From positions 35,680 to 99,679 of the forward strand of contig JBAZRI010000001.1 in the NCBI GenBank assembly GCA_041662965.1: a stretch of DNA of 64,000 nucleotides, given 5' to 3'. Below the pieces are notes generated by a model. It saw only the letters and a program-made list of their open reading frames with translations. It was not told where the DNA came from and did no database searches. Positions 2 through 44,732 of the stretch are shown in pieces. This DNA is from Patescibacteria group bacterium (GTDB taxonomy: Bacteria > Patescibacteriota > Patescibacteriia > Patescibacteriales > GWC2-42-12). The first letter of the stretch is position 1. Every line of letters begins with the position of its first letter. The position numbers and the translations under genes are program-made.

Positions 2-2827
2 GGTAAAAAAGTTCAGGTGGAAAACGCCGGCGAAAAGCATATTTACCGCGACGCCTATCTCAATACCGACGTCGCTCATACCGAATATAGCTTTAAGATT
101 AAGGAAGAGATGATTTTTAAGCGGCCGGGACATCCGATTAAATTTCAATACCGCATCGGCAATATAGATAAATATTATGTGGAAAAAGATAAGGGCAACT
201 TGATTTTTTATAATAAGGAATCATACGGTGAACAGCCGGGTGCCAAAGAACTAAGCCGAGTTTTCACGATTCCCGCCCCGTTCGTTGAAGATAGCCGGCA
301 TTATCGGCGGTTTGACGTCTTAGACATGGAGGTTGAGGGCGATTTATTAATCATCTCCGTGCGCGAAGATTATTTTAAAGACGCCAAATACCCGATTACC
401 CTAGACCCGACCGTAGAAATTAATATTTTAAACCTTTATTCCCATCCGCAACAAGGCGATAATTGGGAAGTGGAATTCACTACCAAGGGCCAAGCTGATT
501 TAAAAATTATCCCCGAAGATCAGGCGACGATTGCTGATGATGAATTCACGAGTTTAGCTTGCGACGGCGAGGAAAAAATTCCGGAAATTTTAACCGGTGA
601 TATTATTTATTATAAAAACTGGCAATGCGCCGGCACGGGCAAAGTAATCCACCGGACTTTAAAAGCCGATAAGCATACTTTAAGGTTTGAGTTCGGCGAT
701 CCGGCCAATCCCGATGATCTGATTACGGTCTGGGCGTATAATTCAGGCGAATCTTGGTATAACGCTAATTGGGGCTATCGAATTAAAATTACGGTTGCTA
801 ATACCGAAGTTGACGCGGATCTAACCGATTTTCCCATTTATGTTAATTTAGACGACTTGCCGGACGATACTTTTTGGGCGCATGTAAAAACCGCTTGCGC
901 GGATGTTAGAATTACCAAAGCGGACGGCCTGGTTGAACTGCCCAGAGAAATCGTCGCCTGCGACACGAGCGCGAAAACCGGAGAAATGCATTTTCAAGCC
1001 GATGCTCTAGCTAATTCAACCGATACGGATTTTTATATTTATTACGGCAATGCCAGCGCCGCCGAGCCGGCGGCCGATAGCGATTACGGCTCGCAGGCGG
1101 TTTGGGACGATGGCGGCAGCGGTTATTACCAAGGGGTTTGGCATCTGCCCAACGGAACATCTTTAACCGCCAATGATTCAACCAGCAACGCGAAAAACGG
1201 AACCATAACCGGATCAGCGGCAATAGCCGGGCAAATGGACGGAGGCGCTAATTTTCCAAATTCTACAGATAGAATAACTATCTCCAGCATTTCTCTGGCC
1301 AGCGGAGTATACACTATCAGCACCTGGTTTAAAACGCCCTTTCCGACAACCAATTATACCACGCTGACCAGAGGAAATAATGATCACCAAGTTTTAACGC
1401 AAGTAACCACCAGATTGCTCGGAGCCTATGATAACGCCGGCGGGACTAATTTTCACAGTTCGGGTTTTGACGTCAGTACGCTTAGCAACGGCTGGCATTA
1501 TTTAACAGCGGAAACTTCGGGCACAAATACCGTCTTTTATATTGACGGCGGTTCGGTGGGAACGGCCGATTGGCGTTCAACCGCGGATATAATTTCTTTA
1601 GGAAATTATCAGGGAGGCGGCCAGCAATGGGGCTATACCGATGAATTAAGAATTTCTACCGGCATCGCCCGCGCCACCGGCTGGATTACCACCGAATATA
1701 ATAACCAGAGTTCGCCGGCAACCTTTTATAATCTTACCGCGGAAGAAGCTTCCGGCATTGAGCCGCCGCCGGCGACCGAAAGCCCCTTAGGCTACCGCAA
1801 ATCGCATACTATCAACGCGGCCGCTGGCGCGGGCACTGATTATCAAGTAAAGATAACCGCTTATTACGGCTCGGGCACGGATAGCGCGGGAAATGTTTAT
1901 CTTAGCGGCCACGGCCGGACGGATTTCGCGGACGTTAGATTTTACGCCAGCGACGGCACGACCGCCCTGGACTACTGGACGCAATTAATAACCGACAGCG
2001 AAAGCGCGATTTTTTGGGTGAAAGTGGCGGCCGATTTAAGCACAGTCAGCCAGAATATCTATATTTATTATGGCAACGAAAGCAATACCACCACTACTTC
2101 CAATGGCCCAAATACTTTTTTGTTTTTTGATGATTTCAGCGGATCCGCGGTTGACGCCACGAAGTGGGACGAAGTAAATACCGGCGCCGGAACCGTTAAC
2201 GTCAGCGGAGGGTCAGTTACGATCAACTCGGGCGGAGATTGGTGGGGCACGGCCGATACTTCCCGCTACTTAGTTTCAAAATCAAGCATGGGAACGAGCT
2301 ATGCTACCGAAGCTTATGTCAAGCAAGACGGGACTTTAGACGGATACAATCGTTTTTACGGCGTGCGTTCAGGCTCGGCGACGAACGCCAAAACATTCGT
2401 GCTTTTAGGCGACGGCAACCATTCTCATATAACTAACGTTTATAGGGATACGGCCGGCGGTTCGGCCAATTGGTATGGCGAAGATTCGGGCGTGGCCGAT
2501 CCCGGAGTGAATAAAATCGCGCGCTTTGAAGTAATCGGCGATACGGTGAACGCCTACTATAATAATTCTTTAGCCAATGCCAGAACCGTCTCCGGCTGGG
2601 ATTTAGGCTATATTGGCCTGACCGACACCAACAATGCCTCTTACGGAGCCGAGTTTGACTGGGTGTTTGCCCGTAAATTCATAGCTACCGAACCGGCGCA
2701 TGGCGCTTGGGGGGAAGAAGAAGCGCTTAGCGTGCCGACTCCGCCCAACCCCCAGGGCGTAAGCGTCCAAGCCGATACGGTTTTTAAAGCCAATATGATT
2801 TTTAAAGCCGGGGAGCCGGTAGAGTAA
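2..2827 (+). CDS. Large surface/secreted protein, 5'-partial: paralogous N-terminal module, two DUF2341-like domains, LamG/ConA-like domains, conserved C-terminal tail
   Basis: The frame is open to the window edge. GKKVQVENAGEKHIYRDAYLNTD aligns with internal residues (~85-110) of the 4838 paralogue, so the true N-terminus lies upstream. The W.YR.KIT...DFYIYYGN motif occurs twice, and LamG-like 'ELRIS...EYNNQ' is present. Confidence 0.8.
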   Translation, partial: GKKVQVENAGEKHIYRDAYLNTDVAHTEYSFKIKEEMIFKRPGHPIKFQYRIGNIDKYYVEKDKGNLIFYNKESYGEQPGAKELSRVFTIPAPFVEDSRHYRRFDVLDMEVEGDLLIISVREDYFKDAKYPITLDPTVEINILNLYSHPQQGDNWEVEFTTKGQADLKIIPEDQATIADDEFTSLACDGEEKIPEILTGDIIYYKNWQCAGTGKVIHRTLKADKHTLRFEFGDPANPDDLITVWAYNSGESWYNANWGYRIKITVANTEVDADLTDFPIYVNLDDLPDDTFWAHVKTACADVRITKADGLVELPREIVACDTSAKTGEMHFQADALANSTDTDFYIYYGNASAAEPAADSDYGSQAVWDDGGSGYYQGVWHLPNGTSLTANDSTSNAKNGTITGSAAIAGQMDGGANFPNSTDRITISSISLASGVYTISTWFKTPFPTTNYTTLTRGNNDHQVLTQVTTRLLGAYDNAGGTNFHSSGFDVSTLSNGWHYLTAETSGTNTVFYIDGGSVGTADWRSTADIISLGNYQGGGQQWGYTDELRISTGIARATGWITTEYNNQSSPATFYNLTAEEASGIEPPPATESPLGYRKSHTINAAAGAGTDYQVKITAYYGSGTDSAGNVYLSGHGRTDFADVRFYASDGTTALDYWTQLITDSESAIFWVKVAADLSTVSQNIYIYYGNESNTTTTSNGPNTFLFFDDFSGSAVDATKWDEVNTGAGTVNVSGGSVTINSGGDWWGTADTSRYLVSKSSMGTSYATEAYVKQDGTLDGYNRFYGVRSGSATNAKTFVLLGDGNHSHITNVYRDTAGGSANWYGEDSGVADPGVNKIARFEVIGDTVNAYYNNSLANARTVSGWDLGYIGLTDTNNASYGAEFDWVFARKFIATEPAHGAWGEEEALSVPTPPNPQGVSVQADTVFKANMIFKAGEPVE

Positions 2828-4632: not shown

Positions 4633-4830
4633 TGTCATTGCGAGCGTAGCGAAGCCTGCCTACCGGTAGGCAGGCAATCTCACGGACAATTTTACAGAAT
4701 AAACCTTTATCGCAGGAACAATCTATAAATGTTTTAGGAATCCGATTCCTTCGGAGGAATCGGATTCCTTCCGCCGCATACGGCCTTCTCGCAATGACAA
4801 ACAGCAAGATAGTCGCTCGCAATGACAAAT
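4633..4830. repeat. LamG-upstream module, full copy
   Basis: The order is gtcattgcgag, the palindrome gcctgcctaccggtaggcaggc, acaattttacagaataaacctttatcgcaggaacaatctataaat, H1 (4736-4769), ccgccgcatacggccttctcgcaatgac, and a second ctcgcaatgac. Confidence 0.85.
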
Positions 4831-4837
4831 AATTAGT

Positions 4838-7024
4838 ATGAAAAAAACAGCTAGAACTAAAAAAAGAGTTAACTCAAAAAAAAGGGTAAATCTAGGAAAA
4901 TATATAATCAGCCTGGCTGTTTTCGCCTTGGTTATCTCCGGTTTTTATTGGTTTTTTAACCGTGATTACCGCGACCCGCGGGTTTTAGGCGCCATGGAAA
5001 AGTTATTGCCAAGCATTAGCAAAAATATTCCCGAAATTTACACCCAAGCCGTTGAAGTGAGCTTCGGCGATAAAACGCTGGGCTTACAACCGCTGGCCGG
5101 CGAGCCGGTAAAAGTTAAGCGCCAAGACGTCCGCAGTATTTATGAAGAAGCTTATAAAAATACCGACGTTATTCAGACCGAATACCCTTATAAATTAAAA
5201 GAAGAGCTGGTTTTTTCAGCGCCCGGCCATCCTTTGATTTTTAAATATAACATTAAAAATTATCAAGATTTTATCATTGAAATAGACCGGGAAGGCAATG
5301 TTATTTTTTACGATAAAGAAAATTATAACACAGGTAAAGACTTGGCGAAAGTTTTTACCATTCCCACTCCGTTTATAGAAGATAAAGTCGGCCAGCGCTC
5401 TTTTTCCGCGGTAACTACGACGGTCGCCGGCGGATTATTAACGATCGCGATTGATGAAAACTGGCTCGTAAAAGCAAAATACCCCATCACCCTAGACCCG
5501 ACCGTGGAAATCAATATTTTAAACCTTTACTCTCATCCGCAACAAGGCGATAACTGGGAAGTGGAATTCACCACCAAAGGCACGGCTGATTTAAAAATTA
5601 TTCCCGAAGACCAGGCCACGATTGACGACGATGAATTTATTTCTCTTAGCTGCAACGGGGAAACAAGAATTCCCCAGATTCTGGCCGGGGATATAATTTA
5701 TTATCCAAACTGGCAATGCTTGCCTCGCCAAAGCGGAGCGCCGGCGGGCGCCGGCGTCGGCAAAGTCGTGCACCGGACGTTAAAAGCCGGCAAGCATACT
5801 TTAAGGTTTGAGTTTGGCGATTCAGCCAAGCCCGAAGAGCTGATTACGGTTTGGGCGTATAATGATCCGGGAGATCCATGGTATAATTCCGCTTGGGGCT
5901 ACAGAATAAAAATTACCGCTCTTAACGCCAAAGTTGACGCTGATCTGGAAAATTTCCCGGTTTACGTTAATTTAGACGATTTGCCGGACGCGACTTTTTG
6001 GGCGCATGTTAAAACCGCTTGCGCCGACGTCAGAATCACCAAGACTGACGGAACAGCTGAACTGCCCAGAGAAATCGTCTCTTGCGATACGAGCGCGAAA
6101 ACCGGAGAAATGCATTTTAAGGCCGATGCTCTAGCCGACTCAACCGACACTGATTTTTATATTTATTACGGCAACGCGGACGCCACCGAACCGGTGGCTA
6201 ACGCGGTTTATGGTCCGCAGAATGTTTGGACCAACAGCTATCAGGCGGTTTATCATTTGCAACAAGATCCCAGCGGCAACGGCGCGGATGCCATTAAAGA
6301 CAGCACCGCGAATGCCTATCATGCCACTCCGTCCGGCTCTCCGGTAAATGGCGCGGGTAAACTGACCGGCAACGGCGTTGTTTTCGGGGGAGATAATGAT
6401 CAATTAATAGATGCTGACCAATTATGGCCTAATGCTAATAACAATATTACGATTTCCATGTGGAATAATGAGGCCTCGGCGGATGGCGGGCAAAATTCAT
6501 CAATTGTTTGGTATACGAATTCCGGCAATGAAAGAATCGGCGCGCACGCGCCTTGGTCAAATGTTACGTATTGGGATTTTGGAACTTGCTGTACCGATAG
6601 CCGCATCTCCGGCGATTATACTCCTTATGATGATAAATATTCGCTTTTGCATTATGTTTCCAACGGCAGCGCCAATAAAATTATTTATATAGACGGAGTT
6701 TCGCGCTATAGCAATATGTCAGCCGCGGATAATCCGGGCGTTGATTTAGTCGGACTTGGCATCGGTTCAGGCATTAATCAAATGTGGCATAAGGGAACCG
6801 TGGATGAAGTTAGAATAGCGACTACTACCAGAGCGTCTACCTGGATTTCCACCGAATACAACAACCAAAATTCACCGGCAACTTTTTATGGCTTAGATAC
6901 TGAAGAAGCGGCGCCGGCGACGGAAACGCCGGCCGCCGCGGTTAATCCCCAAGGCATCAATATCCAGACCGATACGGTTTTTAAAGCCAATATGATTTTT
7001 AAAACCGGGGAGCCGGTGGAGTAG
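4838..7024 (+). CDS. Membrane-anchored surface protein: shared N-terminal module, DUF2341-like domain, LamG domain, conserved C-terminal tail
   Basis: Lys-rich N-region plus TM helix. Residues ~100-330 are paralogous to 2..2827 and 16799..20095. WGYRIKITALN...DFYIYYGN is present. The C-terminus is NPQGINIQTDTVFKANMIFKTGEPVE. Confidence 0.8.
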   Translation: MKKTARTKKRVNSKKRVNLGKYIISLAVFALVISGFYWFFNRDYRDPRVLGAMEKLLPSISKNIPEIYTQAVEVSFGDKTLGLQPLAGEPVKVKRQDVRSIYEEAYKNTDVIQTEYPYKLKEELVFSAPGHPLIFKYNIKNYQDFIIEIDREGNVIFYDKENYNTGKDLAKVFTIPTPFIEDKVGQRSFSAVTTTVAGGLLTIAIDENWLVKAKYPITLDPTVEINILNLYSHPQQGDNWEVEFTTKGTADLKIIPEDQATIDDDEFISLSCNGETRIPQILAGDIIYYPNWQCLPRQSGAPAGAGVGKVVHRTLKAGKHTLRFEFGDSAKPEELITVWAYNDPGDPWYNSAWGYRIKITALNAKVDADLENFPVYVNLDDLPDATFWAHVKTACADVRITKTDGTAELPREIVSCDTSAKTGEMHFKADALADSTDTDFYIYYGNADATEPVANAVYGPQNVWTNSYQAVYHLQQDPSGNGADAIKDSTANAYHATPSGSPVNGAGKLTGNGVVFGGDNDQLIDADQLWPNANNNITISMWNNEASADGGQNSSIVWYTNSGNERIGAHAPWSNVTYWDFGTCCTDSRISGDYTPYDDKYSLLHYVSNGSANKIIYIDGVSRYSNMSAADNPGVDLVGLGIGSGINQMWHKGTVDEVRIATTTRASTWISTEYNNQNSPATFYGLDTEEAAPATETPAAAVNPQGINIQTDTVFKANMIFKTGEPVE

Positions 7025-7656: not shown

Positions 7657-7781
7657 AGTTAGAGTATCTCGGCTATTCCCGATAAATCGGGACCAATCTC
7701 TGCCATACGGACAGGCCTTCGCCGAGGCTTATTATCAATATAGCATATTAAAACAGTTTGTCAAGAGTAATAAAGGGTATT

Positions 7782-7969
7782 GTCGTTGCGAGCCGACAGT
7801 AGTCGGCGCGGTAATCCCACTGACAATTTTACAGAATAAACCTTTATCGCGGGAACAATCTATAAATTTAACAAATAGTTCGTGAGATTGCCGCGCTCCC
7901 TCCGGTCGCTCGCAATGACAAAAAAGAGATTGCTTCGTCGGCCGAGTACGGCCTTCTCCCAATGACAAA
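7782..7969. repeat. LamG-upstream module, copy lacking H1 at the usual position
   Basis: gtcgttgcgag...acaattttacagaataaacctttatcgcgggaacaatctataaat...ctcgcaatgac...tacggccttctcccaatgac. H1 is found instead at 8021..8054, inside the CDS. Confidence 0.8.
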
Positions 7970-7976
7970 TTAAAAT

Positions 7977-10900
7977 ATGAAGATTAAAAGAATAAAATTA
8001 AATAGTCAAAAGATTGTTTTAGGAATCCGATTCCTTCGGAGGAATCGGATTCCTTCGGCCGCTTTGGCCGCCTTGCTTATCTTCGCTTTGGCAGGAAGCT
8101 ATTTTTTATTTTTTAAAAGTACTGCCGTGGAGGCCGGCTGGTGGAACGATTCGTGGCAGTACCGCAAAGCCATTAATATTACTAATGATTCGGGAGCCGA
8201 GCTCGTAGATTTTCAGACTTTGGTTTTAAGCGCGGTTAATTTGTCCGCCGATATCACCGCCGGGAAAATTCGCGCGGATTTAGGCGATCTGCGCTTTGTT
8301 AATTATTTGGGCGAGGTTTTGCCTTACTGGATTGAAGATATTACCGCTACGACCACGGTTAACGCCTGGGTTAAGGCGCCCAGCTTGCCTGCCGGCGGCG
8401 CGACTATCTATATGTATTACGGCAATCCGTCGGCCACGAGCGCGCAAAATCCGAGTAATATTTTTCCGTTTTTTGACGATTTTAATTCTTCTTTAGATAC
8501 GGCTAAATGGACGGCCACGGGCGCTTATTCAATTTCCGGCGGCGCCATGACGATTACCACCGGCGCGGTTTATACCAACAGCCAGATTTTAGCCACGGCG
8601 CAAAATTATATTTATGAATATAAAGCCAAATGGGCGGCCACGGGCTCCGGCTATGCCGGTTTGGAAATCGCGGGCGCGCAAACTACTTATGGCAGTAACA
8701 GTCCGGCTAATAAACTAGCTTATTTTATGACTAACGGCGGCGCTTTAGACAATCAGGCCTGGGCGGGCGATGGAACGGTCACTTCATATAATATTGTCAG
8801 CGGGGTTACGCAATACACGGTTACGGCTAATACTTATTATATAGACGGTTTTTCCGTTGATGCTTCCAATATCAGATATTATCATAATCGCAGCCAAACC
8901 AATCCTTACGCCGGCACCTGGACTTCGGCGCCTTATCTTTGGCTTGGTTATTTTACCGGCGCGGGCGCGGGCACGACCGATACTCGCGACTTAACCGTGG
9001 ATTGGGTTTTAGCCAGAAAATACGCTTCAACCGCGCCGACCGCCGCGGCGCCGGCGACCGAAGAAGTTGCCGCCGGCCCGGTTGCTTATTGGTCCTTAGA
9101 CGACGGGCAGGGCATCACGGCGCAGGACGGCACTACTAATAAAAATAATGGCACGCTGACAAATATGTCCGCCACCGCCTCTTCCACTTCCGGCTGGCAG
9201 ACGGAAGATAATTGTATCGCGGGAAAATGCTCGGCGTTTGATGGGGGGAATGATTATGTGGATATAGGCAATAGCAATATATTAAAACCATCACTACCAA
9301 TTACTGTGTCCGTATGGGTAAAGTTAAAAGTTAATAATGTTTATCAAGGTATTTTAATGAATGACGATTATTATTCGGATAGTAGCGGTAATTATTATGG
9401 AATTGAGGTTGATATAAGCAATAGCGGTAAATTACGAGCAAGTTTTGGAGACGGAGCCGGTAATAGTCTGTCAAACCGTCGTACTAAAACAGGAACAACA
9501 GCTTTATTAACAAATATTTGGTATCATCTTACTTTCGTCATTAGAGGTGCTAATGACATGAGTTTATATATAAATGGTGTTGATGATGGGGGCACTTATG
9601 AAGGAAGTGGCGGTGTATTAGCTTATAGTTCCGCAAGTGGCCGCATAGGAGAAATGGATAGTAATTTTCACATTAATGGTAAAATCGACGAGGTAAAAGT
9701 TTATCCATATTCCCGCACGGCGGCACAGATTAAAATGGATTATAATGTCGGACTGGCCGGGATGAGCGGAGCATCTGCCGGAGACGGCGCGGCTGTTTCC
9801 ATCGGTAAAAAATCTAGCGCCTGGCTGAGTAATGGGTTGGTGGCTTGGTGGAAAATGGATGAAACCGCCACGACTTCCGGAGCGATTGATTATTCGGGCA
9901 ATGGCAATACCGGAACCTACATAAACACGGCTTCCACCACGGCCGGCTATTTTGGCAATGGCGGAAGCTTTGACGGGGTGGATGATTATGTTTCAATTCC
10001 TGATAACGGAACAATTTTAGATTTTAACGCCACCAGCCAATATACTTGGTCAAGCTGGATAAAAAATGCCAGTACGACTTCAGGCACTTCGTGCTTTTTG
10101 TCTAAAGATGGGATTCCGGTATCAAAAATAGTGGGATTTAATTTATGTTTAAATCAAACCGACAGTACGGCCGACGTAGTTGTTTGCAAAGGAAATGGAG
10201 CGTGGGAACTTAATTGTTCCAGCGGGTTAGGCTTAAATATTGCGGTTAACGAATGGAATAATATTGCTATAACTTATGACGGAGCCACCAATTGGGGGAT
10301 TTATAAAAACGGCAGTTTAATGGGAACGATTAATTTCGCGGTTGATTCAGATACTTCGTATAAATATTTCATTGGCGCCGGAGTGGATACAACAAACACA
10401 GGAGTTCAAACCCCAGAACATTTTTTCAAAGGCTCTGTTGACGATGTTCGGGTTTATAACCGCCTGCTTTCTAATCGTGAAGTCAGCGATTTATATAACT
10501 ACGCCCCCGGGCCGATAGCCTATTGGAAGATGGATGAGCGCAACGGCCAGTATGCTTATGATAATTCGGGCAATGGGAATAATGCGACCTTGGGCGCCTC
10601 CGCCGTGAGCGGCTCCGACGACCCGGCTTGGGCCAATGGAAAATTCGGCGCCGGGCTGAAGTTTGACGGGGTGGATGATCGGGTAAGCGTAGAAGATAGC
10701 GATAGCACGGATATCGGTTTCTCCAATTTAACTATTTCTTTTTGGATGAAAAACAACAATGTTTCTTCTTTACAGAGGATAATAGCTAAATTGGCGACTA
10801 ATGCGTCAGGGGCAGGATATTTCGTATCAACGGTTGGCGCCGGCAATCAGTTATATTTTCAGGCGCAAGACGGAGTTAATTCGCTTAATCCGGTTTTCAA

Positions 10901-11429
10901 TCCGTATTTAAAAATTGATAATTTATGGCATTATGTTTCGGTTACTTTGGATCGGTCAATCTCCAGCGGAGTTAAATTTTATTTTGACGGAGTATCGCAG
11001 ACTTGTAATAGTAATTGTTCTTATAACGCGACTTTATTGGGTAATATTTCCAATTCTTTAAAGCTGGCGCTAGGGAATAGAAGCGCAACCGATCCTGGTC
11101 TTCCTATGAATGGTTCTCTTGACGATGTTAAAATTTACAACTACGCCCGGACGCAAAAGCAAATTATTGAAGACATGAATGCCGGGCATCCGGCCGGAGG
11201 CAGTCCGGTTGGTTCGCAAACCGTTTATTATAAATTTGACGAAGGTTATGGCGCGACGGCTAATAATTCGGGCAACGGCGGAGCAACTTTAAACGGAACT
11301 TTAACTCCGGGCGGCGGAGGAGCTAACGATACGGCCGCCAAAATGTGGGATAACGCCGGAAAGTTCGGCAAAGGGGTAGAGTTAGACGGGACGGATGATT
11401 ATATCAGCGTGCCGAATTTTACGTATTAA
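7977..11429 (+). CDS. Giant surface protein: TM anchor, DUF2341-like domain and multiple LamG (Laminin_G_3-like) repeats; appears truncated inside its last LamG repeat
   Basis: WWNDSWQYRKAINITN...IYMYYGNPSA (DUF2341 type). There are at least 5 repeats of the F(D/G)G.DDYV...W(H/Y)...(Y/F).(D/N)G...DDV(R/K).Y type. The ORF ends ...ELDGTDDYISVPNFTY*, just after the start motif of a LamG repeat. Confidence 0.8.
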   Translation: MKIKRIKLNSQKIVLGIRFLRRNRIPSAALAALLIFALAGSYFLFFKSTAVEAGWWNDSWQYRKAINITNDSGAELVDFQTLVLSAVNLSADITAGKIRADLGDLRFVNYLGEVLPYWIEDITATTTVNAWVKAPSLPAGGATIYMYYGNPSATSAQNPSNIFPFFDDFNSSLDTAKWTATGAYSISGGAMTITTGAVYTNSQILATAQNYIYEYKAKWAATGSGYAGLEIAGAQTTYGSNSPANKLAYFMTNGGALDNQAWAGDGTVTSYNIVSGVTQYTVTANTYYIDGFSVDASNIRYYHNRSQTNPYAGTWTSAPYLWLGYFTGAGAGTTDTRDLTVDWVLARKYASTAPTAAAPATEEVAAGPVAYWSLDDGQGITAQDGTTNKNNGTLTNMSATASSTSGWQTEDNCIAGKCSAFDGGNDYVDIGNSNILKPSLPITVSVWVKLKVNNVYQGILMNDDYYSDSSGNYYGIEVDISNSGKLRASFGDGAGNSLSNRRTKTGTTALLTNIWYHLTFVIRGANDMSLYINGVDDGGTYEGSGGVLAYSSASGRIGEMDSNFHINGKIDEVKVYPYSRTAAQIKMDYNVGLAGMSGASAGDGAAVSIGKKSSAWLSNGLVAWWKMDETATTSGAIDYSGNGNTGTYINTASTTAGYFGNGGSFDGVDDYVSIPDNGTILDFNATSQYTWSSWIKNASTTSGTSCFLSKDGIPVSKIVGFNLCLNQTDSTADVVVCKGNGAWELNCSSGLGLNIAVNEWNNIAITYDGATNWGIYKNGSLMGTINFAVDSDTSYKYFIGAGVDTTNTGVQTPEHFFKGSVDDVRVYNRLLSNREVSDLYNYAPGPIAYWKMDERNGQYAYDNSGNGNNATLGASAVSGSDDPAWANGKFGAGLKFDGVDDRVSVEDSDSTDIGFSNLTISFWMKNNNVSSLQRIIAKLATNASGAGYFVSTVGAGNQLYFQAQDGVNSLNPVFNPYLKIDNLWHYVSVTLDRSISSGVKFYFDGVSQTCNSNCSYNATLLGNISNSLKLALGNRSATDPGLPMNGSLDDVKIYNYARTQKQIIEDMNAGHPAGGSPVGSQTVYYKFDEGYGATANNSGNGGATLNGTLTPGGGGANDTAAKMWDNAGKFGKGVELDGTDDYISVPNFTY
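8021..8054. repeat. Hairpin H1 inside the 7977 CDS (in frame)
   Basis: aggaatccgattccttcggaggaatcggattcct encodes GIRFLRRNRIP in the signal-peptide n-region. Confidence 0.85.
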
Positions 11430-12822: not shown

Positions 12823-14652
12823 ATGAATTCAAAATTCAAAATCAAAAATTATTTATTTTTAGCAATAATATTGGTTGCTTGTTTTGGCTTTTTTCATCCG
12901 GCCCAAGCAACATCAGGCAGAGGAAGTTTTTCAGCAAGTATTTTTGTTAATCCTTCCGGTTCAATAGCTTCAAAAGCCATAATCGGCAAAGCGGAAGAAT
13001 TCAGAATGGCGACTGACGCGAACGGATTTCCTCTCTGCCAAGGAAAGTTTATGAGCAGCTGGGTAGCGGCCGCTACTTCTTCTATCGCGATTTCAATCGG
13101 GCAGTGGTCTCAAATCACTTGCGTATTTAATACAACGGATTTAAAAATTTATGTTAATGGAATACTCGCGGGGACGCAAGCGATCAGCGGAATTCCAGTA
13201 ACTGCTAATGTTTGGAAAATCGGCAAGGACGACAGCGCGGGGACGCCTTACGGAATTTTAGCCGGCTTAGTGGACGAATATAAATTTTATAGTTATTCAT
13301 TAACCGCTGACGAAATTAAAATTGATTATAATAAAAACGCGGCGCTAAAACTCGGTTCGTATTCCACCGATGTTAACGGCGTAGCCTCGTCTTCGGCCTC
13401 GGCGATTTATTGCGTGCCGGGTTCAACCGATCCGTGCGCGCCGCCGGTCGGGGAATGGAAGTTTGAAGAAGGTTCGGGGCAAAGCGCGCAAGATACGAGC
13501 GGGAACGGAAATACGGGAACTTTGGGTACCGTCTCTACACCCGATTCGGCAGATCCGGTTTATGCTAATGGAAAAGTCGGCAAGGGGTTGAAGTTTGATG
13601 GGGCGGATGATTATGTGGATGTGGGTGATATAACGGACGGCCTAAGTCAAGTTACTATATGTGCATGGGCAAAATCCGCTGTAGCAGATTTTGGAAGGGA
13701 GATGTCTATTGCCAGAGAATCTGCACAAATCAATCTTCAGAGGAGAGATGATAGTAATCAACAGTTTTATTTTTTAGTTTATAATGATAGCACGTCCGTT
13801 GCTGCATTGGGAGATACCTTTTATACGGATACTAATTGGCATTATGTTTGTGGAGTTTACAATGGAGCTACTGTCGATTTATATGTTGACGGAAAAGACG
13901 ATGAAGCCGCAGTTAATTCTTTAACTGGAACTGTTAGGAGCACAGTTGCGAATTTACAGATATCTGGATCTGATTTTTGGAGCGGAATGCTTGACCAAGC
14001 CCGCGTTTACAACTACGCCCGGACGCCGGCACAAATCGCTTGGGAATATAATCAAGGCGCGCCTGTCGGGCATTGGAAAATGGACGAATGCCAGGGCGGG
14101 GTGATCCATGATTCTTCGCCTAATAAAAATAACGGCCAACTCTATATCGGCACGGGTGGCACGCAAACCGCCACCGGCACCTGCCAAACCGCCGATACGG
14201 TTTGGGGCAATGGCGCTTCGGGAAAACGAAACGCCTCGCTTAATTTTGATGGGAGTGATGATTATGTAAATCAGCCCACTTCCGTGAGCGGCGTGCAATC
14301 GGTTAGTTTTTGGGCTTATCCGACTTCTAATTCTCAATCATTTCTTCAGCTAACCGGCGGCGCTGGGGCGAAGATAATAACTTCAAGCAATGGAACAGTG
14401 AGCGCGAATGGATTTGCCAGCCCGACAATTTATGTCAACGGCATAGCTAACGGAAAAGTTTTGGCTAGCACCTGGAATTATATTACCGTTACTACCGGCA
14501 CCGCTATTACCGCTAATGCTATTAAATTGGGCCTAGTTGGCGCTACCTATTATTCAGGTAAATTGGATGATATCCAGATTTTTAATTACACCCTAACTCC
14601 GGTGCAGATTAAAAATTTATATACCGGCGGGGCGGTAAGGTTTGGGCAGTAG
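12823..14652 (+). CDS. LamG-repeat surface protein; likely the 3' continuation of the 7977 gene with a new signal peptide
   Basis: Signal-like N-terminus (LFLAIILVACFGFFHPAQA). It is followed directly by the middle and end of a LamG repeat (FSASIFVNP...KIYVNG...VDEYKFYSYSLTADEIKIDYN), then three more LamG repeats. Confidence 0.75.
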   Translation: MNSKFKIKNYLFLAIILVACFGFFHPAQATSGRGSFSASIFVNPSGSIASKAIIGKAEEFRMATDANGFPLCQGKFMSSWVAAATSSIAISIGQWSQITCVFNTTDLKIYVNGILAGTQAISGIPVTANVWKIGKDDSAGTPYGILAGLVDEYKFYSYSLTADEIKIDYNKNAALKLGSYSTDVNGVASSSASAIYCVPGSTDPCAPPVGEWKFEEGSGQSAQDTSGNGNTGTLGTVSTPDSADPVYANGKVGKGLKFDGADDYVDVGDITDGLSQVTICAWAKSAVADFGREMSIARESAQINLQRRDDSNQQFYFLVYNDSTSVAALGDTFYTDTNWHYVCGVYNGATVDLYVDGKDDEAAVNSLTGTVRSTVANLQISGSDFWSGMLDQARVYNYARTPAQIAWEYNQGAPVGHWKMDECQGGVIHDSSPNKNNGQLYIGTGGTQTATGTCQTADTVWGNGASGKRNASLNFDGSDDYVNQPTSVSGVQSVSFWAYPTSNSQSFLQLTGGAGAKIITSSNGTVSANGFASPTIYVNGIANGKVLASTWNYITVTTGTAITANAIKLGLVGATYYSGKLDDIQIFNYTLTPVQIKNLYTGGAVRFGQ

Positions 14653-14686
14653 AGGAATTGGATTCCTTTAAAGGAATCCAATTCCT
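14653..14686. repeat. Hairpin H1 variant (perfect 34-nt palindrome)
   Basis: aggaattggattcctttaaaggaatccaattcct. Confidence 0.85.
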
Positions 14687-14806: not shown

Positions 14807-15637
14807 ATGAAAAAAAATAAAAAAATCGCGATTTTTGAAGGACAGAAAATTCGCCGAATTTGGGATGAAAATAAAGAATTATGGTATTTTTCCGTGGTGG
14901 ATGTTGTTGAAGTTTTAACTGACAGCGTGGATGCTCGAGATTATTGGTATAGGATGAAGATTAGAGTGAAAAATGAGGATGGAATTGAGTTGTCGACAAT
15001 TTGTCGACAACTGAAATTAATAGCTAATGACGGCAAATATTATTTAACTGATGTTGCTGACACGGAAGGGATATTTAGAGTCATCCAATCAATACCCTCG
15101 CCTAAAGCCGAGCCGTTTAAATTATGGCTGGCTAGAATCGGCTATGAGCGGGTTGAAGAAACCGAAGATCCGGAAAAAGGCATTCAAAGGGCTATGGCCA
15201 CCTATCTTAAAAAAGGCTATTCTAAAGAATGGGTGGACTTGCGCTTAAAGAGCATGGAAATCAGAAAAGATTTAACCAATGAATGGGATAAGCGAGGCGT
15301 TAAAACGTCCGATGAATTCGCAATTTTGACCGACGATATAACTTTCGCCTGGGCCGGGCTGAAAATAAAGGATTATAAAAAACATAAAGATTTAAAGAAA
15401 GAAAATTTACGGGACAATATGACTAATTTGGAATTAGTTTTAAATATGCTGGCCGAAACCGCGACCGCGGAAATTTCCAAAAAGCGCCAGCCTAAAAATT
15501 TTCCGGCCAATCGCAGGGTAGCGAGAGAGGGCGGCGGCATTGCCGGAACGGCGAGAAAACAAATTGAAGCTAAAACCGGACAGCCGGTAATTTCCAATGC
15601 CAATTTTCAAGCGCGAAAAAAGCTGTTGAAAAAATAA
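14807..15637 (+). CDS. Bro-N domain protein (DinD/antirepressor-like)
   Basis: FEGQKIRRIWDENKELWYFSVVDVVEVL (Bro-N type), then SIPSPKAEPFKLWLARIGYERVEE. The ATG at 14807 is preferred, because the upstream part of the ORF only translates repeat sequence. Confidence 0.6.
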   Translation: MKKNKKIAIFEGQKIRRIWDENKELWYFSVVDVVEVLTDSVDARDYWYRMKIRVKNEDGIELSTICRQLKLIANDGKYYLTDVADTEGIFRVIQSIPSPKAEPFKLWLARIGYERVEETEDPEKGIQRAMATYLKKGYSKEWVDLRLKSMEIRKDLTNEWDKRGVKTSDEFAILTDDITFAWAGLKIKDYKKHKDLKKENLRDNMTNLELVLNMLAETATAEISKKRQPKNFPANRRVAREGGGIAGTARKQIEAKTGQPVISNANFQARKKLLKK

Positions 15638-16570: not shown

Positions 16571-16580
16571 TTGTATTTAT

Positions 16581-16795
16581 GTCATTGCGAACCCCGTAAT
16601 CGGGGTGAAGCAATCCCACGGACAATTTTATAGAGTAAATTTTTATAGCAGGAACAATCTATAAATGTTTTAGGAATCCGATTCCTTCGGAGGAATCGGA
16701 TTCCTTCCGCCTTCCTTCCGCCGCATACGGCCTTCTCGCAATGACAAAAAGAGATAAGCTCGCAATGACAAAAGAGAAGTTCGCGATGGCAGATA
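16581..16795. repeat. LamG-upstream module, full copy
   Basis: The order is gtcattgcgaa, the ccccgtaatcgggg hairpin, acaattttatagagtaaatttttatagcaggaacaatctataaat, H1 (16672-16705), a duplicated ttccttccgcc, and 2-3 copies of ctcgcaatgac. Confidence 0.85.
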
Positions 16796-16798
16796 AAT

Positions 16799-19700
16799 AT
16801 GAAATTAAAAAAACTGAAAAATTTTTTCAAGCCTAAAAAAACCGCTATTATAGCGGCGGTTTTGCCTTGTTTGCTTATCGCCATATTGGGAAGCCTGGTT
16901 TATTGGAGCGTAACCGGCCAAAATGACAAAACCGCTTTTAATTTCGCCCTGCCCGCGACTTACGACCAGCCGATAAGAATAACTTTAGCCGGCCGGGAGC
17001 TTCTAATTTCTCCTCTAGGCAACGTTGCCTCGGCTAAAGCCGAGACTGATAAAGATAATAGTAATATCATCAGATACCTAGACGCTTTTACCAATACGGA
17101 TATCGTCCAGACAAAATATGCCAACAAACTCAAAGAAGATATTATTTTAAAACAGCCGGGCCATCCGGAAATTTTTGAATATCAAATCAATGTTCAGTTA
17201 TACGATTTCATAAAAAGCGAGTCGGGCGATTTTGTTTTTTATCAAAAAGGCAAAAGCGGCGAGGAGCTGTATAAGCTTTTTACCATTCCGGCGCCATTTT
17301 TAGTTGACGCGGACGGAATAAAAAGTTCGCTTAACGACGTGGAAACTTTTTTAACCGGCGACGGCCGGCTGACTTTAAAACCCAGCGTTGAATGGCTAAC
17401 CAAAGCTAAGTATCCGGTGATTTTAGATCCGACCATAGAAATCAGCATAATAAATGTTCATTCCCATCCGGCTCAAGGCGAAAACTGGACGGTTGAATTT
17501 AAAACCCAAGGCGCGGGTGATTTAAAAATTATTCCTAATGATCAAGCGACCATAGACGACGATGAATTCGTGTCTTTGAGCTGTGGGACCGAAAAACGCG
17601 ATGCGCAAATTTTAGCAGGAGATATTATTTTTTATCCAAATTGGTCGTGCGGTGAAACAGCGACAGTTATTCACTATACCAAAAAAGCCGGCCAGCATAC
17701 TTTAAGATTTGAGCTCGGGGAGCAGATTGCCTTCGCCTATAATCAGTCCCTTCCTGCCGACCCCGTCCACTCCAAAACCGAAACCTTAAGGCCGAACGGC
17801 GCGGGCAGCGAAACGGCCATTACTAATCAATTTCCTGCTTCCGGCGAGCATTGGGACAAGATTGATGAAACGACGGCGGATGATGATAGTACTTATGTCA
17901 TGACAGGCGGTTCCTGGCAAAGAGATCTTTATGCTTTGCCAAATCATGCTAGCTCGGGGAGAATCAATTATGTCAAGATTTACGCGCGCTTGAAAAATAA
18001 TTTAGGTTCCGCTTCTAACGGTAAAATTTCTATCAGAACAAATGGTACTGCTTATGATTCCAGCGCCTATCCCCTTACAACCAGTTGGGCAAATTATTCC
18101 AATACTTGGGCAACGAACCCGCAGACCGGCAAGGTCTGGACTTGGGCTGAAATAGACGCGCTTGAAGCCGGTGTTTCCCTGAATAGCGCAAGCATACTTA
18201 AAGGCCAGCCGATTTTAATGGCCGACGGCAGCCAGAAAAATATTGAAGACGTAAAAATTGGCGATGAAGTGATGTCATATAATTTGGATTTAAAAAAAGC
18301 TGAACCGGACAAAGTTGTTGGGCTGGGGGGCGGCTCGCATGATGACTACCTTGTTTTTAACGGCACCTTAAAAACTTCACTGAACCATGTTATTTGGACG
18401 ACCAGCGGCTATAAGCCGGCGGAAGAGATAAAAGTCGGCGACTGGCTTTTAAATTCCGCGGGCGAGGAAGTTGAAGTTCGGCAAATAGAATATGTTAAAG
18501 AAAAAGTTGACACCTATGATTTAACCATAGAAAAAAATCATAATTTTTTCGTCAGCAATTATTTGGTTCATAATCGTGATATTATCAGTGGACTTGCCAC
18601 GCAAGTTTATGTGGAAGTTGGTTATACGCCGACGACGCAAATCAACTCGCCGCTTTCCGGACGATTTAAAGATTCGTCGCTGGTCGGCTACTGGAGTTTT
18701 GACGGCGCGGATATGAGCTGGGGGTCTACTACGGCCGAAGCGCTGGACCGTTCGGGCAATAGCAACAACGGCAATGTGATTGGTTTTGACAGTAAATCCA
18801 CGGCCTCGGGCATTTCCGGCCAAGCGTTAAGTTTTGACGGGGTGGATGATTATGTGGATGCGGGAGCAAACAGTATTACAGGCAGCAATCCATTTACTTT
18901 GGCGGCTTGGCTAAAAAAAGGAGGTGTTCAGCCGGATGGTTACGGCTTAGCTGTTTTTATTGGAGATGCTTCCTCTGACCAATCTGCTTGGATTGGTTGG
19001 TGCAGTACCGCCCAGCATGGAACCGCTAATTCAATCGGCGGCGGTTTTTACGGCACGAATTATGGTTCCGGTATTACTGACAGTGATTGGCATTATGTGG
19101 TTCAAACTTTTGCCGGCGGAAGCAATGGAGCGGTTGTTTTATATGTTGACGGCGTGCCGAAAGTAAATGATAACATGACTCCAAATTTACAAAATACCTC
19201 GGTCAGATTTGGTAAGACCAATACAGGGACAGCGTATTCTTATAATGGTTTTGTTGACGACGTCCGCATTTACAATCGTGCTTTGTCGCCTGCGGAAATT
19301 TCCGAACAATACCGCGCCGGCTCGGCGCGGATGAAAGTTAATTCTCCGGCGCCGGCGGTCGCCGATACCGCTAGTTCATTGGTCGGCTATTGGAGTTTTA
19401 ATGGCGCGGATATGAACTGGGGATCTACTACGGCCGAATCACTAGACCGGAGCGGAAATAATAATAACGGCGATGTGCTTAATTTTGACAGCAAGTCCAC
19501 GGCCTCGGGCATTTCCGGCCAGGCGCTAAGTTTTGACGGGGTGAATGATTATGTTTCAATTTCTGATAACGGAACGGTTTTAGATTTTACTAATACCAGC
19601 CAATATACTTGGTCAAGCTGGATAAAAAATGCCAGCACAACTTCGGGGATTTCATGCTTTTTGTCAAAAGATTTTGGAGCCACGGGGAAAACAGCGGGAT

Positions 19701-20095
19701 TTAATTTATGTTTAAATCAGACCGGCAGTACAGCGGACGTTGTAATTTGCAAAGGAAATTCATCTTTTGCGTTAGATTGCTCCAGCGGATTAGGATTAAA
19801 TATCCCGGTTAACCAGTGGAATAATATTTCCATTACTTATGATGGAGCTTCTAATTGGGGAATCTATAAAAACGGTAGCTTTAGGGGAAATGTTAGTTTT
19901 GCGGTAACATCTGATACTTTATATAAATATTTTATTGGCGCAGGAGTAGATACGATAAGTATCGCAGGTCAAACCCCAGAATATTTTTTTAAGGGTTCTA
20001 TTGACGACGTTCGGGTTTATAACCGCACCCTTACGGCTGATGAAATTTTGCAATTGTATAATTTTGGCGCGAGAAGGGCGGAGGTTAGGCAGTAA
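16799..20095 (+). CDS. Giant surface protein: TM anchor, shared N-terminal module, unknown ~140-aa domain, Hint domain, three LamG repeats
   Basis: N-terminus paralogous to 2..2827 and 4838..7024. Hint blocks lie at residues 465-592. LamG repeats show FDGV(D/N)DYV...DDVR(I/V)YNR. Confidence 0.8.
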   Translation: MKLKKLKNFFKPKKTAIIAAVLPCLLIAILGSLVYWSVTGQNDKTAFNFALPATYDQPIRITLAGRELLISPLGNVASAKAETDKDNSNIIRYLDAFTNTDIVQTKYANKLKEDIILKQPGHPEIFEYQINVQLYDFIKSESGDFVFYQKGKSGEELYKLFTIPAPFLVDADGIKSSLNDVETFLTGDGRLTLKPSVEWLTKAKYPVILDPTIEISIINVHSHPAQGENWTVEFKTQGAGDLKIIPNDQATIDDDEFVSLSCGTEKRDAQILAGDIIFYPNWSCGETATVIHYTKKAGQHTLRFELGEQIAFAYNQSLPADPVHSKTETLRPNGAGSETAITNQFPASGEHWDKIDETTADDDSTYVMTGGSWQRDLYALPNHASSGRINYVKIYARLKNNLGSASNGKISIRTNGTAYDSSAYPLTTSWANYSNTWATNPQTGKVWTWAEIDALEAGVSLNSASILKGQPILMADGSQKNIEDVKIGDEVMSYNLDLKKAEPDKVVGLGGGSHDDYLVFNGTLKTSLNHVIWTTSGYKPAEEIKVGDWLLNSAGEEVEVRQIEYVKEKVDTYDLTIEKNHNFFVSNYLVHNRDIISGLATQVYVEVGYTPTTQINSPLSGRFKDSSLVGYWSFDGADMSWGSTTAEALDRSGNSNNGNVIGFDSKSTASGISGQALSFDGVDDYVDAGANSITGSNPFTLAAWLKKGGVQPDGYGLAVFIGDASSDQSAWIGWCSTAQHGTANSIGGGFYGTNYGSGITDSDWHYVVQTFAGGSNGAVVLYVDGVPKVNDNMTPNLQNTSVRFGKTNTGTAYSYNGFVDDVRIYNRALSPAEISEQYRAGSARMKVNSPAPAVADTASSLVGYWSFNGADMNWGSTTAESLDRSGNNNNGDVLNFDSKSTASGISGQALSFDGVNDYVSISDNGTVLDFTNTSQYTWSSWIKNASTTSGISCFLSKDFGATGKTAGFNLCLNQTGSTADVVICKGNSSFALDCSSGLGLNIPVNQWNNISITYDGASNWGIYKNGSFRGNVSFAVTSDTLYKYFIGAGVDTISIAGQTPEYFFKGSIDDVRVYNRTLTADEILQLYNFGARRAEVRQ
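18191..18574 (+). other. Hint (Hedgehog/intein) domain, bacterial intein-like (BIL), 128 aa
   Basis: Block A: SILKGQPILMADGSQKNIEDVKIGDEV. Block B: KTSLNHVIWT. Block F: TYDLTIEKNHNFFVSN. Block G: YLVHN, followed by Arg at +1 rather than Cys/Ser/Thr. Confidence 0.75.
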
Positions 20096-20134
20096 TAAAA
20101 TTAATTTTCTAATTCCTAATCAATTTTAATAATA

Positions 20135-20592
20135 AATCCCAAACCCCAATGACCAATGACCAAGCAAATCCCAATGGCATAAAACCCAAAGCAAAATACG
20201 ATTTAGAAGAAAGAACAGCTAAATACGCGGAAGCAATAATAGATTTTTCAAGAAAACTGCCGCAAGATACTATCAGCCGGCCATTGATAAATCAAATAAT
20301 CAGATCAGGAACCAGCATAGGAGCAAACTACAGCGAGGCGGATGAAGCCAGCTCTAAAAAAGATTTTTTAAATAAGATTGCCATAGCTAAAAAAGAAACA
20401 AAAGAAACTAAATATTGGTTAAGGATTATCGCTCATGCGTTACCGCAATATAAAGATGAGGCCAGAATATTATGGCGGGAAGCCCAGGAATTAAATTTAA
20501 TTTTTGCCGCTATAACCAGGAACTGTAAAAATAAAAATTAGGATTTAGGGTTTATGATTTTATTGGTCATTGGGGTTTGGTTGTTGGGATTT
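20135..20592. mobile_element. IVS-like cassette: four-helix-bundle gene enclosed by ~30-45-nt inverted repeats
   Basis: Left arm aatcccaaaccccaatgaccaatgacc (20135-20161, contains the ATG). Right arm ttggtcattggggtttggttgttgggattt (20563-20592). Confidence 0.5.
20149..20541 (+). CDS. Four-helix-bundle protein (23S rRNA intervening-sequence protein / Avd-like family)
   Basis: Family-typical ...QIIRSGTSIGANYSEADEASSKKDFLNKIAIAKKETKETKYWLRI...; 130 aa. Confidence 0.8.
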   Translation: MTNDQANPNGIKPKAKYDLEERTAKYAEAIIDFSRKLPQDTISRPLINQIIRSGTSIGANYSEADEASSKKDFLNKIAIAKKETKETKYWLRIIAHALPQYKDEARILWREAQELNLIFAAITRNCKNKN

Positions 20593-20609
20593 AATATATA
20601 TTTAAATTC

Positions 20610-27774: not shown

Positions 27775-27814
27775 TTATCTTACCTCCCTACGGTACGGTT
27801 AAATGGTTAATCGA

Positions 27815-28843: not shown

Positions 28844-29014
28844 TGTCATTGCGAGAAGCCCGTAATCGGGCGACGAAGCAATCTAATTATTTGTCATCTC
28901 GATGAGCGGAGCGAGGAGAGATCTATAATAGCTGGTTAGCGCGATTACTAAATATTATAGATTTCTCGCCTACGGCTCGAAATGACAAAAAAATATTGTC
29001 GCTCGCAATGACGA
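28844..29014. repeat. Composite nested inverted-repeat block upstream of parA
   Basis: The outer pair is tgtcattgcgag (28844) and ctcgcaatgac (29002-29012). It encloses the inner TIR element 28892..28987. Confidence 0.6.
28892..28987. mobile_element. MITE-like element, family 'tgtcatctcga...gagagatctataat'
   Basis: The inverted termini are tgtcatctcgatgagcggagcgaggagagatctataat and attatagatttctcgcctacggctcgaaatgaca. A second copy lies at 30848..30970. Confidence 0.6.
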
Positions 29015-29023
29015 AACTGCCAA

Positions 29024-44168: not shown

Positions 44169-44732
44169 ATGTATCGGCGAGAAAATAAAAGTATGCTTAA
44201 ACAAATATTTAAGAGCGCTAATCGGCTAAATAAAAATAAATCCACCGGGTTTACCCTATTAAATTCGACAAGGTCGGAGCGAAGCAATTTAACCGGGTTT
44301 ACTTTAATTGAACTTCTGGTGGTAATTTCAATTATCGGTTTTATAACAGTATCTTCGGTGGTGGTTTTCAATATCGTGAGGAAAAATTCCCGCGACGCCG
44401 TCAGGGTGGGCAATATTACCACTATCAAGCGCGCTTTAGCCATGTATTTAAACGATAGCGGCGGTTATCCGGCTTCGGTCGGCGAGTGCTTAAGCGCCGG
44501 CGCCGGCGTTGGCGCCATATTAAAAACTTCTAAAGTTTTATTGACCGTGCCGTTAGACCCTTTGCCCCAACTGCAGAGCGCCGCGCCTAACCCTAGCGTC
44601 GCCGGCGATACGGACGGTTTCTGTTATTGGTATGTCAGCAGCAGCCAAAAATTATTTGACTTAAGCTATTTTCTGGAATCTACTTCCAACTCGGGCGCGG
44701 CCGGATCCCATACCATAAATCAATTTCAATAA
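44169..44732 (+). CDS. Type IV pilin / pseudopilin-like protein (start uncertain)
   Basis: Prepilin motif LTG|FTLIELLVVISIIGFI. The leader is unusually long (alternative start ATG at 44193) and contains a duplicated STGFTLL. Confidence 0.7.
   Translation: MYRRENKSMLKQIFKSANRLNKNKSTGFTLLNSTRSERSNLTGFTLIELLVVISIIGFITVSSVVVFNIVRKNSRDAVRVGNITTIKRALAMYLNDSGGYPASVGECLSAGAGVGAILKTSKVLLTVPLDPLPQLQSAAPNPSVAGDTDGFCYWYVSSSQKLFDLSYFLESTSNSGAAGSHTINQFQ

Follow-up and report, generated by a model that had tools for sequence, protein, structure and literature searches.

The 64,000-nt stretch analysed here, called the window, comes from the chromosome of a Patescibacteria (candidate phyla radiation, CPR) bacterium. 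Its first ~20 kb hold a same-strand cluster of genes for large DUF2341/LamG surface proteins, together with Bro-N, DUF3800, AAA_14 and other genes, and the rest carries housekeeping genes (dnaE, thrS, gyrB, prfA, rpsB, tsf, parAB and pur genes). Within one of the surface-protein genes, 7977..11429, lies a copy of a 34-nt palindrome, H1, whose other copies occupy spacers of the cluster. The features at this site are as follows, with L001 denoting the locus of an H1-less homologue described below.

7977 to 11429, + strand: surface-protein gene, DUF2341 and three LamG (Laminin_G_3) domains, 1150 aa; ATG 7977 confirmed by homologue comparison.
7977 to 8135, + strand: predicted signal peptide, 53 codons, with putative cleavage before G54-WWNDSW.
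8021 to 8054, + strand: H1 copy in the coding sequence, perfect hairpin with 15-bp stem and loop TCGG, translated GIRFLRRNRIP.
8021 to 8059, + strand: net 39-nt (13-codon) insertion relative to L001, H1 plus TCGGC, encoding (L)GIRFLRRNRIPSA; right boundary ambiguous by a few nt.

H1 at 8021-8054 reads AGGAATCCGATTCCT-TCGG-AGGAATCGGATTCCT; its arms of 15 nt are 100% complementary and enclose a 4-nt loop, and as RNA it forms one 15-bp hairpin with a folding energy of -24.2 kcal/mol (z = -5.4 vs shuffles). It begins 44 nt after the A of ATG 7977, is read in its second frame and adjoins the hydrophobic core, so that the N-terminus of the open reading frame (ORF) is MKIKRIKLNSQKIVL-GIRFLRRNRIP-SAALAALLIFALAGSYFLFF-KSTAVEA-GWWNDSW...; the sequence confirms this placement, which had been given in the initial annotation. 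By inspection and family alignment, the leader has the basic n-region, hydrophobic h-region and small -3/-1 residues of a cleavable Sec-type signal peptide: an n-region of residues 1-27 (9 K/R), an h-region of residues 28-46 (AALAALLIFALAGSYFLFF, 19 hydrophobic residues) and the c-region KSTAVEA. The N-termini of ~25 homologues likewise show a K/R n-region whose length varies, then a hydrophobic core, and finally a small-x-small site (AEA, VEA, VQA, TSA etc.) that directly precedes the conserved WWNDSWxYRK motif. No other part of the family varies as much in length as the n-region, which has about 10 to over 70 residues ahead of the core. Because AxA precedes WWNDSW across the family, we infer that the H1 peptide is removed with the signal peptide; the 7977 leader is most likely cleaved at AVEA/G, and the H1 peptide would then be gone from the mature protein. 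The initial annotation also held that H1 supplies the positively charged n-region, which overstates its part: the 15 residues ahead of H1 already carry 5 K/R, H1 adds 4 Arg, and the n-region of the H1-less homologue has 7 K/R.

The gene caller and the NCBI records agree on the 7977 start, both giving the 1150-aa product, which NCBI lists as 'MAG: DUF2341 domain-containing protein [Patescibacteria group bacterium]'. An assembly artefact was considered and rejected, since the identical product is on record at NCBI, with two accessions, and at ENA, the longest contig being 294 kb long; the repeat is also far shorter than the assembly k-mer, as judged from the contig name (k141).

Using the first 400 residues of the 7977 product as homology query, we found a homologue, P0003 (assembly GCA_041643395.1, 2.4-kb contig, locus L001), which keeps the start codon, the first 15 codons and the h-region of 7977 and is without exactly 13 codons at the position of H1. 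P0003 reads MKLKKLKLNRKKIVL joined directly to AVAVLLIFALASSYFLFFKTPSVQAGWWNDSW, whereas the window reads MKIKRIKLNSQKIVL, GIRFLRRNRIPSA and ALAALLIFALAGSYFLFFKSTAVEAGWWNDSW; in a longer N-terminal comparison, MKLKKLKLNRKKIVL continues into AVAVLLIFALASSYFLFFKTPSVQAGWWNDSWQYRK... in P0003 and MKIKRIKLNSQKIVL-GIRFLRRNRIPSA into ALAALLIFALAGSYFLFFKSTAVEAGWWNDSWQYRK... in the window. At the DNA level, the empty site is ATTGTTTT followed by GGCGGTTGCCGTCTTGC (GGCGGTT...), and the filled site is ATTGTTTT, H1-TCGGC and CGCTTTGGCCGCCTTGC (CGCTTTG...), a net difference of +39 nt. H1 was found in neither the 83-nt leader nor the coding sequence at the P0003 locus. The first 15 codons are identical to L001 at 34/45 nt, with 4 synonymous and 5 conservative differences (I/L, R/K, I/L, S/R, Q/K), and the 300 nt past the insert at 235/300, with 26 synonymous and 21 non-synonymous differences in 100 codons, while the 45 nt upstream of the ATG match at 13/45, the random level. 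This drop in identity from 34/45 to 13/45 at the ATG implies that coding constraint starts exactly at ATG 7977. The comparison therefore shows that H1 in 7977 is an in-frame, translated insertion and not a leader element with a downstream start. The initial annotation had proposed comparison with element-less orthologues as a check, and its view that translation runs through H1 is upheld by the codon comparison with P0003. Among 192 retrieved proteins, only the window protein carries the H1 peptide; its 90% cluster holds this one sequence only, with no H1-less allele of the same gene. A deletion in P0003 was rejected and an insertion in the window is the parsimonious reading, because the segment is unique to the window protein among the 192 and identical to a repeat found elsewhere.

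Identical copies of H1 lie at three more places in the window, with the same loop orientation (shuffled expectation 0.00). We also examined the window contig extended 2 kb upstream (locus L002) and 10 kb past the window (L003), ~76 kb overall; a search with the C-terminus of a 1766-aa LamG protein, aimed at sequence still further upstream, gave no candidates. Two further perfect copies lie just upstream of the window, at L002:626, before a Bro-N gene, and at L002:1679, ahead of the DUF2341 gene (1032 aa) with whose truncated end the window begins. With a variant palindrome, the total is six perfect H1-type copies and one variant, all inside one ~18-kb DUF2341/LamG and Bro-N cluster; one of the seven is embedded in an ORF. 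Neither the other ~47 kb of the window nor the 10 kb beyond it contains a copy. A spacer copy lies upstream of six of the ten called cluster genes, the seventh is inside 7977, and three genes are without one. The intergenic copies in the window are these.

2846 to 2879, + strand: H1, 19 nt past the stop of ORF 17..2827 and 51 nt ahead of ATG 2930.
4736 to 4769, + strand: H1, directly 3' of module M (described below), 69 nt ahead of ATG 4838.
16672 to 16705, + strand: H1, upstream of a 1098-aa LamG/HINT gene, with a 3' 11-nt tandem duplication TTCCTTCCGCC.
14653 to 14686, + strand: variant H1-type palindrome AGGAATTGGATTCCTTT/AAAGGAATCCAATTCCT, upstream of Bro-N paralogue 2.

The variant at 14653 starts 1 nt past the stop of gene 12823..14652. 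In two of its base pairs both partners are replaced (C:G to T:A in one, C:G to G:C in the other) with full pairing kept, and the centres of its arms are still complementary (TGG/CCA). These paired double substitutions and complementary centres mark hairpin complementarity as the conserved trait, so that arm-to-arm pairing is what is maintained in H1, not merely two protein half-sites. The two Bro-N paralogues are 56% identical, and each has an H1-type palindrome upstream. GTAG, which is one end tag of the GTAG-/CGTC-tagged repetitive extragenic palindromes (REPs; PMC3733652), stands at 14649-14652 directly 5' of the variant, where it overlaps the stop codon of gene 12823..14652; it precedes none of the six perfect copies. 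The 11-nt tandem duplication at 16701/16712 (16701-16722), immediately 3' of the 16672 copy, is absent from the other copies. Rfam gave no family match at H1, its matches in the window being three tRNAs only, and exact and degenerate H1 pattern scans of public genome, metagenome and viral contig collections gave 0 matches. A protein search with concatenated six-frame H1 peptides returned 5 candidates sharing words, none of which scored, which at most suggests rarity.

The H1 copies are set in a mosaic of other repeats. An X'-type repeat, TCCGCCGCATACGGCCTTCTCGCAATGACAAA, stands directly 3' of the four intergenic copies at L002:1679, 2846, 4736 and 16672 (family D11), and the copy at L002:626 is followed by a near-variant block, TCGGCCGCATACGGCCTTCTCGTAATGACAAA. 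On the 5' side, a ~46-nt module M ending ...CTATAAAT-GTTTT precedes H1 at L002:1679, 4736 and 16672; it is partial at L002:626 (...AACCTTT, then H1) and absent at 2846, where the left flank is CAATTGTTTT. The leader of gene 7977 itself contains module M (7822-7867) and two X' units (7883-7970), and H1 is absent there.

7822 to 7867, + strand: module M (GACAATTTTACAGAATAAACCTTTATCGCGGGAACAATCTATAAAT), here without H1; M at 4685-4730 and at 16621-16666 abuts GTTTT-H1.
7925 to 7970, + strand: X'-type repeat (GAGATTGCTTCGTCGGCCGAGTACGGCCTTCTCCCAATGACAAA), just 5' of ATG 7977, the equivalent, without H1, of the ...CGCCGCATACGGCCTTCTCGCAATGACAAA block 3' of intergenic H1.

Since M and X' occur without H1 in this leader, H1 is separable from its neighbouring modules. 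The promoter and terminator scan listed no promoter- or terminator-like site at H1 or module M, and the sole nearby terminator-like call is a stem at 8056-8070, just downstream of H1. Module M was considered as a sigma-70 promoter and dropped, as the promoter scan had no site there. Abundant X-type repeats (TGTCATTGCGAG-variable hairpin-GCAATCTCAC) lie at 4633-4684, 7781-7822 and 16580-16620, and in reverse orientation (...CTCGCAATGACAAA) at 7883-7970, 2880-2911, 4770-4830, 16716-16773 and 28972-29018. They often stop 8-30 nt short of start codons, and in one homologue, P0005, X-type repeats are translated as a spurious N-terminal extension. A literature search for the X-repeat core GTCATTGCGAG gave unrelated primer matches only.

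We consider it likely that the 34 nt of H1 form the hairpin core of a short, non-coding palindromic repeat specific to this lineage, akin to REPs or to the Rickettsia palindromic elements (RPEs), and that the copy inserted in frame in 7977 is tolerated. The H1-type repeat populates the spacers between same-strand genes of the DUF2341/LamG and Bro-N cluster, and one copy (H1 and about 5 nt, 39 nt net) entered 7977 exactly at the junction of n-region and h-region. Translation starts at ATG 7977 and continues across the hairpin, so that the n-region, which is cytoplasmic and positively charged, gains GIRFLRRNRIPSA. This addition appears to be tolerated rather than needed, and the mature protein would be unchanged after cleavage at AVEA/GWWNDSW. 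Tolerance is expected on four grounds: the length is a multiple of three; none of the six frames of H1 contains a stop codon; the frame used, GIRFLRRNRIP (+4), which owing to the palindrome is identical on either strand, is the only basic one; and the segment sits in a length-variable, most likely cleaved region. The basic frame fits the well-established positive-inside rule, and the acidic frames of H1 (RNPIPSEESDS, ESDSFGGIGF) would be expected to clash with it next to the core. Strong hairpins are otherwise kept out of coding sequence: although ~88% of the window is coding, only 2 of the 12 hairpins whose stems reach 14 bp or more are inside ORFs.

H1 may have reached 7977 by either of two routes, which we regard as about equally likely. 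It may have been copied from another H1 copy by microhomology or template switching, or a trans-acting enzyme may have directed insertion of the hairpin 3' of TGTTTT, as in IS200/IS605 or REP-associated tyrosine transposase (RAYT) systems. GTTTT stands directly 5' of five of the six perfect copies, and the L001 empty site already has ATTGTTTT. The left flank ATTGTTTT of the 8021 insertion is common to copy 2846, and its right flank TCGGCCGC to the copy at L002:626. Hairpin elements of the IS200/IS605 type insert 3' of a short specific target and make no target duplication. H1 resembles them in its hairpin, the lack of a target-site duplication, the 5' GTTTT and the empty site with ATTGTTTT; it differs in that IS200/IS605 elements have a TnpA/Y1 transposase and distinct left and right ends, whereas for H1 no such gene was seen, the element is a single hairpin and there is one independent event.

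Several observations weigh against a mobile repeat that is a neutral passenger in 7977. One clearly independent H1 insertion event is documented; the copies at L002:1679, 2846, 4736 and 16672 have long identical flanks in common and may stem from segmental duplication instead of separate insertions. Pfam scans of the window and the gene tables of the loci, ~76 kb in all, showed no transposase, RAYT, recombinase or integrase, the comparison of the window with L001 showed no target-site duplication, and the empty result of the scans of genome, metagenome and viral collections means that mobility has no support from other genomes. Both signal-peptide cleavage and expression of the 7977 product are predictions. 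Finally, all copies are in one ~18-kb cluster and in one orientation, six are 100% identical and the variant retains its pairing by two double substitutions, a pattern that also fits a selected cis-element: an mRNA stabiliser, a processing or translation-tuning hairpin or a protein-binding site, still working inside 7977. Such an explanation, which we regard as possible though distinctly less probable, accepts the in-frame insertion and denies the neutral passenger. It would account for each H1 arm being itself a 6+3+6 palindrome (AGGAAT-NNN-ATTCCT), for the identity of the six copies despite strong divergence of the neighbouring genes, for the common orientation relative to the genes, and for the H1-type palindromes upstream of both diverged Bro-N paralogues; the compensatory changes at 14653 also speak for it, the complementary TGG/CCA centres not being needed in an operator-only model. 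It fits poorly with the varied spacing to start codons, the intergenic copies beginning 51 to about 150 nt ahead of the probable start and the 7977 copy 44 nt past the ATG, and with the two copies 1-19 nt past an upstream stop, as in 3' REPs. The closest homologue does without H1 in both leader and coding sequence, neither Rfam nor the other genomes scanned gave a match, and the promoter and terminator scan passed over H1 and module M, its nearest call lying just downstream.

We regard as very improbable that the real start of 7977 lies downstream of H1, at TTG 8064 or 8073 or at ATT 8049, with ATG-KIKRIK as a fortuitous open extension. The initial annotation had stated that no alternative start exists downstream; in-frame candidates do exist (TTG 8064, 8073 and 8088, and ATT 8049), and it is the comparison, not their absence, that rejects them. 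ATT 8049 even sits 5 nt past a GGAGGA (8038-8043) within H1, and many REPs called at ORF N-termini are suspected to be extragenic, their starts having been mis-called (PMC3733652). The 15 codons ahead of H1 are nevertheless conserved at the protein level with P0003, and identity falls just upstream of the ATG as described. Starts at the downstream codons would keep the hydrophobic core in part and lose the charged n-region, so that the TTG 8064 product would be unlike every inspected homologue. GGAGGA would be buried in the -24 kcal/mol stem, and Shine-Dalgarno (SD) sites are unused by most genes here: an SD-like motif is found in 8 of 50 genes, an A/T-rich pre-ATG context is typical, and that of 7977 (ATTAAAAT-ATG) is A/T-rich without SD. 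The GGAGGA of H1 was also considered as a ribosome-binding site in general and rejected, the intergenic copies having no canonical start 5-13 nt downstream. It is just as hard to believe that H1 is a lox/FRT-like site for site-specific recombination that marks cassette boundaries of a variable surface-protein locus, with the 7977 copy as a by-product. The 34-bp architecture is compatible with this, with inverted arms around a short asymmetric core (13-8-13 or 15-4-15); the copies are perfectly identical, their presence in the spacers ahead of six of ten genes and inside a seventh would suit cassette boundaries, and flank types are reassorted, ATTGTTTT being common to 2846 and TCGGCCGC to L002:626. 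The ~76 kb examined have no recombinase or integrase, the sites are all directly oriented, and each gene comes with a start and a signal peptide of its own, so that no expression-site logic applies; the 39-nt segment could not be delivered as a recombination circle, and the flank matches are 8 nt only.

Compared with known palindromic repeats, H1 shares traits with several families and departs from each of them in others. RPEs are about 150 bp long and inserted in frame in many Rickettsia genes (PMC10969869), and N-terminal RPE-decorated proteins have been reported as expressed (PMC10969869; PMC3733652). RPEs and H1 are alike in being repeated non-coding palindromes with in-frame translated copies in ORFs that do not destroy the gene. 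They differ in size, as the about ten RPE families measure about 100-150 bp and H1 is 34 nt (39 inserted); in distribution, as RPEs are scattered over numerous unrelated genes and almost half of the copies lie in ORFs, whereas H1 has one of seven copies in an ORF and is confined to one cluster of ~18 kb, with none in the other ~58 kb examined; and in position, as the RPE peptide stays in the mature protein and the H1 peptide is in a presumably cleaved signal peptide. RPEs also have a CGTC end, whereas H1 has no CGTC at either end and its host is a Patescibacteria bacterium; it is on these traits that H1 was set apart. The GTAG-/CGTC-tagged REPs are 20-40 bp long and have occasional intragenic copies in several species with an N-terminal excess, many of these being suspected mis-called starts (PMC3733652). 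H1 is like REPs and REP doublets forming hairpins (REPINs) in its 20-40 bp stem-loop size and form and in lying mostly between unidirectional genes, often after stops (for H1, two copies, 1-19 nt). Instead of a GTAG/CGTC tag, however, the six perfect H1 copies have GTTTT or CCTTT before and TCC/TCG after them; REPs are mobilised by RAYT, whereas none was seen in the window and flanking loci, and REPs have over 100 dispersed copies, whereas H1 has seven clustered in ~18 kb, so that its copy number looks low and local. Miniature inverted-repeat transposable elements measure 70-300 bp, with terminal inverted repeats and a target-site duplication; H1 is 34-39 nt and has no flanking direct repeat. 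Length-variable Sec n-regions also gain basic residues N-terminal to the core, as with H1; ordinary variation of this kind comes from indel drift, whereas the H1 residues have a traceable source in a repeated DNA hairpin.

The RPE-like phenomenon proposed in the initial annotation thus stands for the in-frame translated insertion (the P0003 empty site, and a second palindrome, H2, in a paralogue) and does not stand as a general phenomenon, with one of seven copies in an ORF and a single cluster. Membership of H1 in the RPE or tagged-REP families is contradicted by its size and dispersion (RPEs), by its end tag (both families) and by its lineage. H1 is best described as a new lineage-specific short palindromic repeat that is occasionally inserted in frame, not as a new mechanism.

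H2 is the second palindrome family, with the core AGAyrTCCGAsGTCC...GGACGTCGGAyrTCT. It has two intergenic copies in the window.

41003 to 41036, unstranded: H2 intergenic copy, folding at about -24 kcal/mol.
46263 to 46295, unstranded: H2 intergenic copy, folding at about -24 kcal/mol.

The n-region of the DUF2341 paralogue L002:1753 (1032 aa) has a third, in-frame H2 copy (L002:1780-1820, ~220 nt before window position 1), whose DNA, AGAGACGTCCGACGTCCCGCGAGACGGCGGACGTCC, encodes the Arg-rich RDVRRPARRRTSR. This paralogue and window gene 4838 have near-identical leaders and N-terminal coding sequences, and 4838 is without H2. Another possible parallel is found in the pilin-like (N_methyl) ORF 44169..44732, whose prepilin leader, with about 41 residues, is unusually long. 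In the region 44244-44302 of this leader, an 11-nt direct repeat, ACCGGGTTTAC, present at 44244 and again at 44292, brackets a 48-nt in-frame segment, a candidate insertion, which duplicates the G/FTL motif (STGFTLL...LTGFTLIELL). The putative insert resembles the 3' half of X-type repeats (...GAGCGAAGCAATTTAAC). A cleaved N-terminal leader peptide, with cleavage as predicted, is the common denominator of the intragenic cases. One could further propose that H1 and H2 form a Patescibacteria-specific class of ~34-nt hairpins, preferentially inserted or retained in secretory n-regions, exapted as Arg-rich extenders or as translation-pacing early-coding mRNA hairpins, and mobilised by a TGTTTT-specific single-strand mechanism not linked to a known transposase, an extension that we find doubtful.

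Other features of the window deserve a brief record. Both Bro-N paralogues contain a 15-bp palindrome (TCGACAATTTGTCGA core), at 14985-15015 of the window and at L002:~895-925; it falls at the conserved peptide ELSTICRQLK, and the palindromic codon choice is kept despite 56% protein identity. The 1098-aa LamG surface protein (16799-20095) has a HINT/intein-like domain (PT-HINT, Hom_end_hint) at residues ~468-592. Relative to the paralogous segments 540-760 and 17562-17780, ORF 4838..7024 carries a GC-rich in-frame insertion of 30 nt (GCTTGCCTCGCCAAAGCGGAGCGCCGGCGG) at 5718-5747. On the minus strand, purH is apparently split (26521-28489) into two ORFs 40 nt apart, of 224 aa (MGS and AICARFT profile positions 1-59) and 417 aa (AICARFT 74-311, with its own GGGAGG ribosome-binding site), the combined length being ~100 aa above that of typical PurH. 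Further AT-rich inverted-repeat families (e.g., AAATCCCAAACCCCAATGACCAAT and its complement) flank the 23S_rRNA_IVP gene 20149..20541 and are present in several spacers (20100-20160, 20545-20605, 29800-29917, 42047-42150 and 35172-35263).

These results provide an unusually clean case of a translated short hairpin repeat, with the start codon verified by an empty-site homologue. Many of the N-terminal intragenic REPs reported so far are probably mis-called starts, and the 7977 case contrasts with them. Our literature search found no description of small palindromic repeat families in CPR/Patescibacteria, and the present analysis documents such families in one of these genomes. For annotators, it means that N-terminal hairpin-encoded peptides in such genomes can be real. 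The n-region of a secretory signal peptide emerges as a permissive landing site, and two unrelated palindromes in paralogous genes are both Arg-rich there, pointing to a filter of charge and frame on the insertions that survive.

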